DNA from: Alphaproteobacteria bacterium
GTDB taxonomy: Bacteria > Pseudomonadota > Alphaproteobacteria > SHVP01
Assembly: GCA_038121105.1 (NCBI GenBank)
Contig: JAYONB010000007.1
Coordinates: 119,365 to 183,364 of the forward strand
Reading direction: 5' to 3'
DNA: 64,000 bases
Within the stretch, counting starts at the first letter, position 1, and the number at the start of each line of letters is the position of its first letter. Shown in pieces: positions 17,545 through 43,340 of the stretch. The notes under the pieces are model-generated. The model saw only the letters and a list, made by a program, of their open reading frames with translations. It was not told the origin of the DNA and ran no database searches. The translations under genes and the position numbers were made by a program.

Positions 17545-17570
17545 CCCCCCAACGCCGCACTTCTAGGATG

Positions 17571-17865
17571 TCATCCTGAGGAGGCGCCAAAGGCGCCGTC
17601 CCGAAGGGCCCGCCGACGCACCGCAAGGCGTCCGCATTCTTCCGCGGACGCCGCGCGCACCGCACACCCGCCCCCAACAAACTCCTCCCCCTCTTGGAGG
17701 GGGAGGCCGGGAGGGGGTCTTCGCCCTAATGGATTCCGGATGCCACCAACCCCCTCCTCAATCCTCCCCCTGCCAAGCAGGTGGAGGAGGCTCGAGGGCC
17801 CAATCGCCTCAATTGTCGTCATCCTGAGGAGGCGCCAAGGGCGCCGTCTCGAAGGGCGCCGCAAA
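17571..17865. repeat. composite intergenic repeat cluster: A-module (GTCATCCTGAGGAGGCGCCAARGGCGCCGTCYCGAAGG) x2, internal hairpin, and B-module polypyrimidine/polypurine hairpins x2
   Basis: A at 17571-17610 and 17818-17860; hairpin GGCGTCCGC-attcttcc-GCGGACGCC at 17627-17653; B at 17682-17720 and 17743-17790. Confidence 0.8.
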
Positions 17866-30339: not shown

Positions 30340-31136
30340 CGGCAACGCCCGCCCCCCAAGACGACCTCGGTCCCGACCACCTGCTGCTGCTCGAAGCCGT
30401 CCGCGAGGCGGGCGCGCTGGCGCTCAAGTATTTCCGCACCGACGTCGAGTCCTGGGACAAATCGCCCGACAACCCGGTCAGCGAAGCCGACCTCGCGGTC
30501 GACAGATTGCTCCGCGAGCAACTCACCGCCGCGCGACCCGACTACAGCTGGCTGTCCGAAGAAACCGAAGACAATCCCGAGCGCCGCGGCAAAAGCCACG
30601 TCTGGATCGTCGATCCGATCGACGGCACCCGCGCCTTCTTGCGCGGCACCCCGCAATTCGCGGTCTCCGCCGCGCTTGTCGTGGACGGCCGCCCGGTGCT
30701 GGGCGCCGTGTTCAATCCCGCCCAAGACGAGATGTTCGAGGCCGTCAAAGGCGGCGGCGCGCGCCTCAACGCCGCCCCGATCCATGTCTCCGGCAACACC
30801 GACCCGACTTGCGCGCGCCTCCTCGCCGCCAAAAAGACCTTCCGCACCCACGGCTGGCCCGAGGTCGCCGAGGGCGCCGAGTTCCACTTCGTCAACTCGA
30901 TGGCCTACCGCATGGTCGTCGTCGCCGACGGCCGGTACGACGCCACCATCACCACCACCAACAAAAGCGAATGGGACATCGCCGCCGCCCACCTCATCGT
31001 CGAAGAAGCCGGCGGCGCCGTCACCAACGTCGACGGCACCCCCCTCACCTACAACCGCGAACACGTCCACCACGACAACGTGCTGTGCGCCGGCAAGAAA
31101 CTCCACGACGTGTTGGTTGCTGGGCTAAAGAGCTAA
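30336..31136 (+). CDS. inositol monophosphatase family protein (CysQ/SuhB-like 3'(2'),5'-bisphosphate nucleotidase)
   Basis: IMPase motifs WIVDPIDGT and EEAGG. The GTG start overlaps the pmbA stop. Confidence 0.78.
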   Translation: MTATPAPQDDLGPDHLLLLEAVREAGALALKYFRTDVESWDKSPDNPVSEADLAVDRLLREQLTAARPDYSWLSEETEDNPERRGKSHVWIVDPIDGTRAFLRGTPQFAVSAALVVDGRPVLGAVFNPAQDEMFEAVKGGGARLNAAPIHVSGNTDPTCARLLAAKKTFRTHGWPEVAEGAEFHFVNSMAYRMVVVADGRYDATITTTNKSEWDIAAAHLIVEEAGGAVTNVDGTPLTYNREHVHHDNVLCAGKKLHDVLVAGLKS

Positions 31137-31173
31137 CGCGCGCTCGGATTCCGGGTCCCACACCCCAGCGTCT

Positions 31174-31432
31174 CTCATCCTGAGGAGGCGCCGGACGGCC
31201 AAAGCCTGCCATGGGCCTGCCGAATGGTCCCGAAGGACGCCCACCCAATTGCCGGGGCCGAAACCCGCAAAGCGTCCGCTGGCCTCCGCGGACGCTTTGC
31301 GCGCGGCACCTTTACCCCCACCCAACTCCTCCCCCTGCGCGTCAGGGGGAGGCCGGGAGGGGGTCGCCGCGAACAACGCGCGGTACCGCCAACCCCCACC
31401 TTCATCCTCCCCCTCAAGAGGGAGAGGAGATG
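31174..31432. repeat. second copy of the composite A-hairpin-B repeat, plus a B-module variant
   Basis: A-like at 31174-31245; hairpin AAAGCGTCCGC-tggcctcc-GCGGACGCTTT at 31268-31297; B at 31325-31363; B' at 31401-31432. Confidence 0.8.
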
Positions 31433-31433
31433 T

Positions 31434-32315
31434 TCAATGCGTCGATGGGGGTGACGCCACCATCAACGCATCATCCACCACCTCGATCTCCACCGGCGTC
31501 GTCAACCGGTTGTCGCCGTCCAACTGCACGGGCTTGCCCGCGGGCGCCGCAATGCGCATCCGCTGCGCTGGGACGATCCGCACGTCCGGCAAGGCATAGA
31601 GGTTGCCGCGCATATAGGCCGCGCCGTAGCGCATCAGGTTCCACCGCCCGTGCCGCAGGCCGATCAGCACATGAAGGTCGCGCCCCGTCAGCCGCGCCGC
31701 GGGCGCGACGACCTTATCGCCGGCATAGCGCGCCGCATTGGTGACGATTACCGAAGACACGCGATGGACCGCGCCGTCGATCTCGACATCGAACACCGTG
31801 TCGCCTTCGGCGATCAGCGCCCGCACCAGCGCGATGTAATAGGCGGTTTGCCCGAGCCGTTTCTTCAATCCGGGCGAAAGAAACTTCACCGCCGCCGCGT
31901 CGGCACCCGCACCGGCCGTCAGTATGAAATGCCGCCCGTTGGCGCGGCCCACCGTCACCGGGGTCAACGACCCGTCGGCCAGAACGGCGGCGAGCCCCGC
32001 CGCATCGCCGGGCAGCCCGAGTTCCAGCGCCAACACGTTGATCGTCCCCAGCGGCAACGTGGCGAAGCCGGGCCGCGCCCCGTCGCGCCTCATCAGCCCT
32101 TCCACCACTTCGTTGATGGTCCCATCGCCGCCGGCCGCCACCACGAGATCGGCGTCGGCCGCCCGGGCCACGTCGGTCGCATGATCCGGCCCCTCCGTAG
32201 CAACGACCTCAGCTGCCACCCCGCGCGCGCCCAGCGCCGCCACCACCCCGTCCAGCAACGCGGTGCGCCGCTTGCCGGCGGTCGGGTTGTGAATGATCAG
32301 AATGCGCCGCGTCAT
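31434..32315 (-). CDS. diacylglycerol kinase catalytic-domain lipid kinase (YegS/BmrU family)
   Basis: GGDGT motif and DAGK_cat layout. Confidence 0.75.
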   Translation of the reverse strand: MTRRILIIHNPTAGKRRTALLDGVVAALGARGVAAEVVATEGPDHATDVARAADADLVVAAGGDGTINEVVEGLMRRDGARPGFATLPLGTINVLALELGLPGDAAGLAAVLADGSLTPVTVGRANGRHFILTAGAGADAAAVKFLSPGLKKRLGQTAYYIALVRALIAEGDTVFDVEIDGAVHRVSSVIVTNAARYAGDKVVAPAARLTGRDLHVLIGLRHGRWNLMRYGAAYMRGNLYALPDVRIVPAQRMRIAAPAGKPVQLDGDNRLTTPVEIEVVDDALMVASPPSTH

Positions 32316-34472: not shown

Positions 34473-34515
34473 AACTCCTCCCCCTCACCGAGGGGGAGGG
34501 CAGGGAGGGGGTTGG
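34473..34515. repeat. B-module hairpin repeat (AACTCCTCCCCCTcaccgAGGGGGAGGGCAGGGAGGGGGT)
   Basis: Same polypyrimidine/polypurine palindrome as at 17682 and 31325. Confidence 0.75.
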
Positions 34516-41686: not shown

Positions 41687-41797
41687 GGCTGAGCGGGCAT
41701 GGTACAAAGGTCCCTCCCAACCACCAAACACTCTCACGGCCCTGCCCCCGCCAGCACCCATCGCGATGCCATCTTTGCCCACCCGCGCTGTCCAAAC

Positions 41798-41931
41798 GCC
41801 TCCCCCTGCTTTCAGGGGGAGGTCGCCCAGCGGCGTAGCCGATGGGTGGGAAGGGGCCGCTACCCGAGCAACCGTCTTCGCCCCTTTGCCACCAACCCCC
41901 TCCCTGCCCTCCCCCTGCCCGCAGGGGGAGG
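41798..41931. repeat. two B-module-like hairpin repeats in the xseA/purD divergent region
   Basis: CGCCTCCCCCTgctttcAGGGGGAGGTCGCC (41798-41828) and CCCTCCCCCTgcccgcAGGGGGAGG (41907-41931). Confidence 0.7.
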
Positions 41932-42004
41932 AAGATGAGATCGGCACAACGCCACAAGGCGTTCAGTTCGATGCATGTGGAGAAGAGAAAGCCATGCCAG
42001 CATG

Positions 42005-43270
42005 AACATCCTCGTCGTCGGATCGGGCGCGCGCGAACATGCGCTGTGTTGGGCCATCGCCCGCTCGCCCCTCACTGATCAGCTCTTTTGCGCGCCGGGC
42101 AACGCCGGCATCGCCCAAGTGGCCACCTGCCTTCCTACCAGCGTCGACGACACCCCCGGCCTCCTCGCTGCCTGCCGCGCGCACGCCATCGATTTCGTCG
42201 TCGTCGGCCCCGAAGGCCCCTTGGTCGACGGGCTCGCCGATGCGCTCACCGAAGCCGGCATCAAGGTCTTCGGCCCCAGCGCCGCCGCCGCGATCCTCGA
42301 AGGCTCCAAAGGCTTCATGAAAGATCTGTGCGCTCAATACGGCATCCCGACTGCCGCCTATGGCCGCTTCACCGAAGCCACCGCCGCCAAAGATTTCATC
42401 GCCCGCACCGGCGCGCCCGTCGTGGTCAAGGCCGACGGCTTGGCCGCCGGCAAAGGCGTGATCATCGCCGAGACGGTGTCGGACGCGCATGCTGCGGTCG
42501 ACAACATCCTGGGCGGCCAATTCGGCGAGGCCGGGGCCGAGTTGGTCATCGAAGAATTCATTGAAGGCGAGGAAGCGAGCTTCTTCGCCCTGTGCGACGG
42601 CACCCACGTGCTGCCGCTGGCGGGCGCGCAAGACCACAAACGCGTCGGCGACGGCGACCAAGGCCCCAACACCGGCGGCATGGGCGCGTACTCGCCTGCC
42701 CCCGTGCTCGACGATGCCATGGCGAGCCGCGTCATGGACGAGATCGTCCGCCCCACCGTCGCCGCGATGACCGCCGAGGGCCGCCCCTACCGGGGCGTCT
42801 TGTACGCCGGCCTGATGATCACCGCCGAAGGCCCCAAGCTGATCGAATACAACGTGCGTTTCGGCGACCCCGAATGCCAGGTACTAATGGCGCGTCTCGA
42901 CTCGGATCTCGTGCCCGCGCTGATGGCCTGCGCCGACGGCGCCCTCGACAAGATCGCGCTCAATTGGAAAGACCAACCCGCCTTATGCGTCGTCATGGCC
43001 GCCAACGGCTATCCCGGCGCCTACGAGAAAGGCAGCGTCATCAAAAATCTTGAGGCCGCCGACGCGCTGGCGGGCGTCACCGTCTTCCACGCCGGCACCG
43101 CCACCAAAGACCACGCCACCGTCGCCACCGGCGGTCGCGTCCTCGGCGTCACCGCCTTGGGCGACACAATCGCTGCGGCCCAACAAAACGCCTACGCCGC
43201 CGTCGACCTCATCGACTGGCCCGGCGGCTTCTGCCGGCGCGACATCGGCTGGCGCGCCCTCGACCGCTAA
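42005..43270 (+). CDS. purD: phosphoribosylamine--glycine ligase
   Basis: [16 protein letters not shown]-terminus and ATP-grasp core. Confidence 0.95.
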
Positions 43271-43305
43271 CGCCGCTCACCCCATAACAAGATTGCTCAT
43301 CCTGA

Positions 43306-43340
43306 GGCGAATCGCGAAGCGTTGCGTCTCGAAGGACGAG
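43306..43340. repeat. solo A-module-like repeat (TCATCCTGAGGcgaatcgcgaagcgttgcGTCTCGAAGGACGAG)
   Basis: Shares the TCATCCTGAGG ... GTCYCGAAGG ends with the copies at 17571, 17818 and 31174. Confidence 0.6.

Follow-up and report, generated by a model that had tools for sequence, protein, structure and literature searches.

A hairpin-bearing modular repeat between convergent genes of an uncultured alphaproteobacterium

Repeats built from palindromic modules abound in the intergenic DNA of bacteria, and the function has been settled for very few of them. The locus described here raises the question of whether the stem of such a repeat is held in place by selection or is the residue of a dead element, and, if it is held, in which nucleic acid it folds. 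The locus lies in a stretch of 64,000 nucleotides, hereafter the window (GenBank assembly GCA_038121105.1, contig JAYONB010000007.1, positions 119,365 to 183,364 of the forward strand), from an uncultured alphaproteobacterial lineage that is known from metagenomes only. The window contains two copies of a composite repeat, each with an internal hairpin. A preliminary description of this DNA proposed that the base of the hairpin stem had switched from GG/CC in copy 1 to AAA/TTT in copy 2 with complementarity preserved, that such covariation points to selection on secondary structure, as RNA or as a DNA cruciform, rather than to neutral decay, and that the element could act as a bidirectional terminator or as a small RNA (sRNA). 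Comparison with related genomes shows that, where the composite is kept, the arms of the hairpin evolve 2-3 times slower than neutral sites, the loop being free in both sequence and length; this rate evidence for a maintained stem is stronger than the covariation evidence.

The hairpin forms part of a dispersed intergenic repeat that is about 250-330 bp long and made up of modules. Repeat searches and alignment reveal an order and spacing of modules that are fixed across the four loci described below, namely module A, the hairpin (module B), a triplex motif (module C+) and an inverted triplex motif (module C-), with a second module A in direct orientation at the far end of some copies. The distance from the end of the module B core to C+ is 30 nt in both window copies. 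Module B reads GGCGTCCGC-ATTCTTCC-GCGGACGCC in copy 1 (17627-17652, + strand) and AAAGCGTCCGC-TGGCCTCC-GCGGACGCTTT in copy 2 (31269-31298, + strand); these are the sequences given in the preliminary description, the coordinates of which (17627-17653 and 31268-31297) were each off by one nucleotide. The core GCGTCCGC-N8-GCGGACGC, with 16 exact bases, is found twice in the window, compared with 0.01 occurrences expected from shuffled sequences. An extra CGC/GCG closes the base of both stems, which accordingly are longer than had been described. In copy 2, the stem consists of 14 contiguous pairs, formed by the 5′ arm CGCAAAGCGTCCGC (31266-31279) and the 3′ arm GCGGACGCTTTGCG (31288-31301) on the two sides of the loop TGGCCTCC (31280-31287), all on the + strand; the 3′ arm is followed by the conserved flank GCGC..GCAC, the 3′ flank conserved in module B being GCGCGCACCGCAC. 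In copy 1 (17622-17657, + strand), the arms CGCAAGGCGTCCGC and GCGGACGCCGCGCG enclose the loop ATTCTTCC and form nine pairs, a 2x2 internal loop (A.G, A.C) and three further pairs (17622-17635 with 17644-17657). The two window hairpins fold much more stably than shuffled sequences, with RNA z-scores of -5.0 and -4.4 (+ strand) and of -6.0 and -3.6 (- strand) and DNA z-scores of -5.8 and -3.5; the predicted RNA stability is -25 to -33 kcal/mol.

Additional copies were sought in the syntenic loci of relatives, gathered via homologues of the lipid kinase and UbiA encoded next to the two window copies, and in metagenomes, which were scanned with the pattern GCGCGC-N14-28-AACTCCTCCCCCT, chosen so that the stem stays unbiased. 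Among the 120 metagenome matches listed, 118 were chance occurrences in coding sequence and only two, L197 and L210, were genuine. One more, L031, from a metagenome-assembled genome in GTDB, came from a covariance model based on the module B copies; the model detected no further module B in 294 kb of sequence (the window and its relatives) or, besides L031, in 1.38 Mb of other loci. Altogether, nine distinct module B sequences were collected from four loci: the ubiA locus (copy 1, L355 and L359), the cysQ/kinase locus (copy 2, L347, L130 and L346), the valS locus (L197) and the locus of an acyl-CoA dehydrogenase gene (L031). All nine are intergenic, the hairpin spanning 36 nt with 12-14 pairs in the window copies, and all four loci lie between convergent genes, for which the chance is 0.25^4 = 0.004 if one quarter of the intergenic regions are convergent. 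The location of copy 2 between convergent cysQ-like and lipid kinase genes, as initially described, is borne out: a gene of the inositol-monophosphatase/CysQ family ends upstream at 31136 (+ strand) and one of the DAGK/YegS family of lipid kinases ends downstream at 31434 (- strand). Six strains of the same species (JGI and Logan contigs that carry exact matches to the lipid kinase and are 99.5-99.8% identical to the window) show no polymorphism in 31100-31480 and are uninformative.

The evidence that carries the main result comes from orthologous sites, at which arms, loop and spacers of the same element can be compared with the four-fold degenerate sites of the flanking genes. Between copy 2 and L130, the divergence is 32% at four-fold sites and 39% in the spacers between modules, with two changes in 26 arm positions and four in the eight loop positions; the corresponding values are 27.5%, 34%, 4/28 and 3/8 for copy 2 and L346, and 26.5%, 29%, 3/28 and 2/8 for copy 1 and L355. 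Thus, the arms diverge by 8-14% against 27-32% at the four-fold sites (P = 0.007 for two independent contrasts pooled), whereas the divergence of the loop (25-50%) and of the spacers (29-39%) corresponds to the neutral rate. An arm rate below the four-fold rate indicates constraint, not decay. Across the nine copies, the upper 8 bp of both arms are near-invariant and the sequence of the loop between them is free; the inner palindrome CCGCGG is present in seven copies, with CCGTGG in L347 and TCTCGG in L355. In L031 the loop has shrunk from 8 to 3 nt, and the arms do not differ from those of copy 1.

The covariation is more modest than the comparison of the two window copies had suggested. The aligned 5′ arms, CGCAAGGCG and CGCAAAGCG, are one base apart, and a single pair, G-C replaced by A-T, has changed on both sides; the other two A-T pairs of copy 2 correspond to the A.G and A.C mismatches of copy 1 and reflect one-sided changes, in the 3′ arm only, that repaired these mismatches. 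One double change between two copies is not beyond chance, about 0.2 such pairs being expected across the nine-copy set. For genome scans this carries a warning: a ‘compensatory change’ seen between two copies of a palindrome is a weak argument, since template switching and common ancestry would look no different. In the larger set, the hairpin is retained by 9/9 copies, and 86.5% of the alignment cells are standard pairs, against 20-51% in controls with the 3′ partner slid by 1-3 columns. Six of the 14 pairs are invariant, two are double-changed, two show one-sided changes to wobble, and four depart from pairing only by unpaired cells. At pair 8-33, six copies have G-C, L130 has G.U, and copy 2 and L347 have A-U; at pair 10-31, seven copies have C-G, L359 has U.G and L355 has U-A. 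Hence, for both double changes a G.U-type intermediate is seen in a relative.

RNA and DNA are indistinguishable as the folding molecule because both strands fold equally well. For the whole element, the z-scores are -4.18 and -4.20 on the two strands. The mean stability of module B over the nine copies is 0.7 kcal/mol greater on the - strand, with no systematic strand preference, and for module A the + strand gives the stabler fold in 6 of 14 copies; transitions in the module B stem yield four + strand wobbles against one for the - strand, not a significant difference. The proposal of selection rather than neutral decay is thus supported by the slow change of the arms relative to the neutral loop and spacers, with the covariation adding a suggestion and the two strands giving no preference for RNA over DNA.

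With moderate confidence, we take the constraint to fall on a stable stem formed by single-stranded nucleic acid where convergent transcripts meet, acting in a manner resembling that of repetitive extragenic palindromes (REPs) and bacterial interspersed mosaic elements (BIMEs). What would matter is a stable stem of roughly the sequence of module B, and the likeliest site of action would be the single-stranded nucleic acid at the 3′ ends of both converging transcripts; the equal folding of the two strands suits a site that is read from both sides. Stacked strong stem-loops at this position would block 3′-to-5′ exonucleases or help polymerases to end without a U tract, the part proposed for REP/BIME elements in enterobacteria. 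The double changes would arise via G.U-type intermediates, both of which occur in relatives, and template switching within the palindrome during replication may contribute to them.

Several points weigh against such a role. Only nine copies have been collected, and the covariation among them is borderline and hence suggestive: in the alignment of the nine copies, 2 of the 14 pairs are double-changed, and the observed covariation score, number of double-changed cells and number of double-changed pairs were matched in 17, 19 and 95 of 500 shuffles, respectively, figures that overstate the significance because the copies are related; a per-lineage count of substitutions, with about 0.2 chance double changes expected, gives P(>=2) = 0.018. 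Uncompensated changes occur in four core pairs, namely G.A in L346, T.T in L197, a loop-closing C.T in L355, U.G in L130 and G.U in L347. Furthermore, paralogues are about as similar as orthologues and the loop of C- is common to different loci, so that conversion or recent copying could mimic part of the constraint. Any benefit would have to be small or local, given that close relatives lack the element at the same sites. No U-rich tail follows any copy 2 hairpin and no promoter-like site was detected in a scan of 31000-31600, and BoxC/PIT triplex motifs, the class to which the neighbouring C modules belong, showed neither promoter nor terminator activity in Escherichia coli (PMC4666352).

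These transcription signals bear directly on the roles initially proposed: both a bidirectional intrinsic terminator of the canonical type and an sRNA gene with its own transcription are now very unlikely. The convergent position at all four loci and the very stable stems would suit a terminator, and the C+ hairpin of copy 1, read on the - strand (17706-17684), is followed by the T-rich tail AGTTTGTTGG and passes the terminator-like scan. However, the equivalent tail in copy 2 fails that scan, no terminator-like site exists on either strand in 31000-31600, after module B the + strand reads CGCGGCACC and the - strand GGGUUUCGG, and PIT elements did not terminate transcription in E. coli (PMC4666352). 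Nor was a sigma-70-like promoter found at either copy, and Rfam returned no match at the gathering threshold for the whole window; below the threshold there were only generic microRNA-precursor-like hairpins. Two further candidates were dropped, the suhB RNA motif, considered for the neighbouring inositol-phosphatase gene, for lack of an Rfam match, and an attC-like site for lack of an integron context. It is highly improbable that the inverted repeat GCGTCCGC-N8-GCGGACGC is a site in duplex DNA for a dimeric protein, its arms being kept for recognition rather than for folding: shortening of the spacer from 8 to 3 nt in L031, with unchanged arms, would displace one half-site from the other by half a helical turn, what the two double changes preserve is pairing and not sequence, and the copies lie at gene 3′ ends and not near promoters. 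These facts stand against the near-invariance of the upper 8 bp of the arms, the freedom of the spacer sequence and the persistence of CCGCGG outside L347 and L355, all of which favour a binding site. Complementarity might also be generated by mutation alone if template switching at a quasi-palindrome copies one arm onto the other without any function. At replication, this process can yield a covariation-like pattern without selection on RNA (PMC8794818); it is documented to fix pairing in existing stems and to introduce multi-base compensatory changes, and it explains the conversion of imperfect into perfect inverted repeats with both sides of a pair changing (PMC8794818, PMC7202029). The lineage of copy 2 and L347 shows what such an event could look like, with three nearby changes (G to A in the 5′ arm; C to T and G to T in the 3′ arm) by which a lower stem with interruptions became a perfect 14-bp palindrome, one of them repairing a prior mismatch. 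Template switching is, however, a mutational mechanism and not a family of elements, and it leaves the low arm rate unexplained: it keeps the arms complementary without slowing their divergence from orthologues, and the arms change at 1/3-1/2 of the neutral rate. Moreover, wobble or mismatch states persist in five copies, which implies that the correction is not efficient. As a full account of the hairpin, we consider it quite improbable.

A selfish origin we regard, on balance, as somewhat unlikely. The composite would be a non-autonomous mobile element resembling a REPIN (paired REPs) or a MITE (a miniature transposable element with inverted repeats), with hairpins that, folded in single-stranded DNA, serve as substrates for a transposase whose gene lies elsewhere in the genome; its arms would look conserved without serving the host, since only intact copies spread and since these copies are young. 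Much of the distribution fits. The whole unit is present at four unrelated loci, and the alignment shows that the spacers between modules are homologous among paralogues, which implies that the composite was copied as a unit, to at least four places. Its presence at orthologous sites is patchy even between relatives with 85-91% identity in the flanking proteins, the module A variants within one locus have been homogenised, the triplex motifs are paired in inverted orientation like the REPs of a REPIN, neither DNA strand folds better than the other, and convergent intergenic regions are the least harmful landing sites. The structure of the unit fits less well, lacking the features by which MITEs are recognized: no terminal inverted repeats bound it, the two A modules being direct repeats, and comparison of filled with empty or short sites reveals no clear target-site duplication but rather the microhomologies GCGCGC and ACCCCCA, which fit deletion between repeats. 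No transposase family is among the Pfam matches on record for about 35 kb of the window and syntenic DNA. Finally, orthologous copies have stayed in place over about 27-32% synonymous divergence with neutral spacers and conserved arms, and a copy with no further need to move would not be expected to show such in situ conservation.

The element is a member of the REP/BIME-like mosaic repeats. REP/BIME elements of enterobacteria have a proposed role in mRNA 3′-end protection. With these and with REPINs the composite shares short G+C-rich extragenic palindromes in a fixed mosaic with other short motifs, a location at gene ends or between convergent genes, loops that are less conserved than stems, and patchy presence between strains. 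Module B itself is an imperfect, G+C-rich, extragenic palindrome within the size range of REPs (~20-40 nt). The differences are the absence of sequence similarity, the presence of triplex motifs in the mosaic and an apparently low copy number of module B, with two copies in the 64-kb window and none beyond orthologues in about 230 kb of syntenic DNA from relatives. Furthermore, the 5′ tetranucleotide of the GT(A/G)G type that is found in REPs is missing, the 5′ flank and arm being CCGCAAGGCG in all copies, without GTAG or GTGG, and no RAYT (Y1 transposase) is among the Pfam families on record for 21.4-42.3 kb of the window and the syntenic ubiA region. RIME of Rhizobium and the pneumococcal BOX (boxA-B-C) are likewise modular intergenic repeats, RIME being composed of palindromic blocks in alphaproteobacteria. 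A blastn search of the composite, and of A and B together, against 72,556 plasmids, many rhizobial replicons included, matched module C alone (Azospirillum, Rahnella), all matches to A or B having E values of at least 0.9. Scanning viral contigs for the module B 5′ arm gave 88 chance matches and no family member, the joined six-frame translations of four copies, used as a protein query, matched nothing at E <= 10, and literature searches with sequence strings of the repeat found unrelated primers only. Modules A and B are restricted to this lineage and do not figure in Rfam, but elements of this kind are familiar, and module C has already been described. The composite offers a clean comparison of arms, loops and spacers at the same sites in several related genomes, with constraint on the arms and on the triplex motifs, and, if a larger census agrees, the lineage would be suited to asking whether such cassettes protect or end transcripts and whether the triplex motifs are selected.

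Modules C+ and C- are, as judged from their sequences, G/C-rich purine-motif intrastrand triplex elements of the BoxC/PIT/TM type. In this class, a C-rich block is followed by a loop, a complementary G-rich block, a short loop and a mirror-repeat G-rich block, with stems of 8-15 nt (PMC4666352). The layout CCTCCCCCT-N5-7-AGGGGGAGG-N2-GGGAGGGGG is found at 17682-17718, 31326-31364 and 34475-34512, and inverted copies are present at 17749-17790, 31392-31430 and 41891-41933. In copy 2, C+ (31326-31364, + strand) consists of CTCCTCCCCCT, the loop GCGCGTC, AGGGGGAGG, CC and GGGAGGGGGT, and C- (31392-31430, + strand, inverted form) of ACCCCCACC, TTCAT, CCTCCCCCT, CAAG and AGGGAGAGG, ending 3 nt short of the kinase stop codon; in copy 1, C+ (17682-17718, + strand) has the loop CTTGG, and C- (17749-17790, + strand) has the loop GCCAAGC and the R block AGGTGGAGG. 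The remaining two, at 34475-34512 (+ strand, without A or B) and 41891-41933 (- strand), are solo motifs in divergent intergenic regions. A hairpin CCTCCCCCT-GCTTTC-AGGGGGAGG without the third, mirror block lies at 41797-41826, about 65 nt from the latter. The E. coli consensus, TMECO, is CCCTCNCCC N3-6 GGGNGAGGG N3 GGGNGAGGG (Holder et al., 2015; PMC4666352). The comparison with BoxC/PIT/TMECO, which concerns the neighbouring C modules and not hairpin B, reveals 9-nt blocks, intergenic location, no strand bias, occurrence in very many bacteria and rearranged loci as common features. The C modules do not match the exact consensus, the blocks being CCTCCCCCT, AGGGGGAGG and GGGAGGGGG rather than CCCTCNCCC and GGGNGAGGG and the loops 5-7 and 2 nt long rather than 3-6 and 3 nt, and represent a related G/C-rich class II motif. 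A scan of genome contigs with AACTCCTCCCCCT-N4-8-AGGGGGAGG identified >119 loci in diverse phyla (Devosia, Dyella, Cellvibrio, Rahnella, candidate phyla and others) and thereby showed module C to be ubiquitous; exact-pattern searches of these loci found no module A or B, and the covariance model later gave the L031 copy.

At orthologous sites, the triplex modules show no changes in 32-43 nt where about 9-12 are expected (P between 1e-5 and 1e-7), with 27-32% divergence at four-fold sites, the exception being two changes in the C+ arm of the close relative L347. Such strong conservation is unexpected for a triplex motif without an assigned function. One might conceive of the whole cassette, with A, B and the inverted triplex pair, as a structural element selected by the host at junctions of convergent transcription units, which we consider unlikely, and, as part of the same proposal, of the triplex modules as being under very strong purifying selection, which is likewise doubtful. 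If this were true, it would be the first evolutionary evidence that motifs of the BoxC/PIT type do something, no function having been assigned to them since the 1990s and the last link made being only one to genomic instability.

The composite has been gained, truncated or lost at orthologous sites, and this instability matches the rearrangement between relatives of loci that carry triplex motifs (PMC4666352). With the composite, the cysQ/kinase spacer has 297 nt in the window, and three relatives have 278, 260 and 249 nt; in another, with a 90% identical kinase, it is only 60 nt long (L136, 8030-8089), a form that deletions between direct repeats of GCGCGC and of ACCCCCA would fit. At the ubiA locus, the spacer with the composite is 330, 368 or 372 nt long and, without it, 125 nt (two A modules only), 114 nt (one A variant) or 6 nt (empty). 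Sites that are partly deleted, empty or differently filled are thus found at L136 8030-8089, L356 10254-10259, L358 3416-3540 and L349 10955-11068, in relatives with flanking proteins that are 85-91% identical. In a relative with a 78% identical kinase, the cysQ/kinase spacer contains tandem 41-nt A-like units with a copy-number polymorphism, two units in 86 nt in L133 (10904-10989) and three in 127 nt in L134 and L135 (10904-11030). The kinase C-terminus is repeat-derived in L130 and L346 (proteins P0004 and P0009), ending in ...VASFGTAPSGASSG and ...VASVGAASSGASSGERLNISSPS, respectively, compared with ...VASPPSTH in the window. The GASSG motif in these proteins is module A read on the opposite strand, so the end of the kinase has been replaced by the repeat, from which in one case its stop codon also comes.

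Module A, which may be a better candidate than module B for a structure under selection, consists of CTCATCCTGAGGAG, a variable inner hairpin and GTCYCGAAGGRCG, and was examined in the window and in L355, L358, L359, L197, L031 and L133-L135. The sequence of its inner helix varies by copy (GCGCC/GGCGC, CGGCC/GGCCG, CATCGC/GCGATG, CCGACCGG/CCGGGCGG), the pairing being kept in each case; three pairs are altered on both sides in 2-5 of the 14 copies, G.U alternates with G-C or U-A at two pairs, and the base of the module is conserved. Variants are alike within a locus, with CATCGC/GCGATG in both copies of L359 and GCGCC/GGCGC in the window. In composite copy 1, the left module A (17570-17610, + strand) starts 25 nt past the ubiA stop codon and the right one, in direct orientation, occupies 17818-17858 (+ strand); in copy 2, the conserved outer halves CTCATCCTGAGGAG ... 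GTCCCGAAGGACGC surround the variable inner hairpin at 31174-31240 (+ strand). A solo variant with a different inner hairpin is located at 43297-43339 (+ strand), 26 nt past the stop codon of the gene at 41975-43270. The module A of copy 2 carries an insertion of about 25-40 nt, GCGCCGGACGGCCAAAGCCTGCCATGGGCCTGCCGAATG (about 31188-31226), that is otherwise present only in the closest relative, L347, and part of which, CCGGACGGC, is found again in L031, where it forms the inner stem of module A variants. At the left edge of copy 1 (17565-17577), the first bases of module A take part in a perfect palindrome, AGGATG-T-CATCCT, and an inverted half of module A, CTCAGGATGA, is present in L197.

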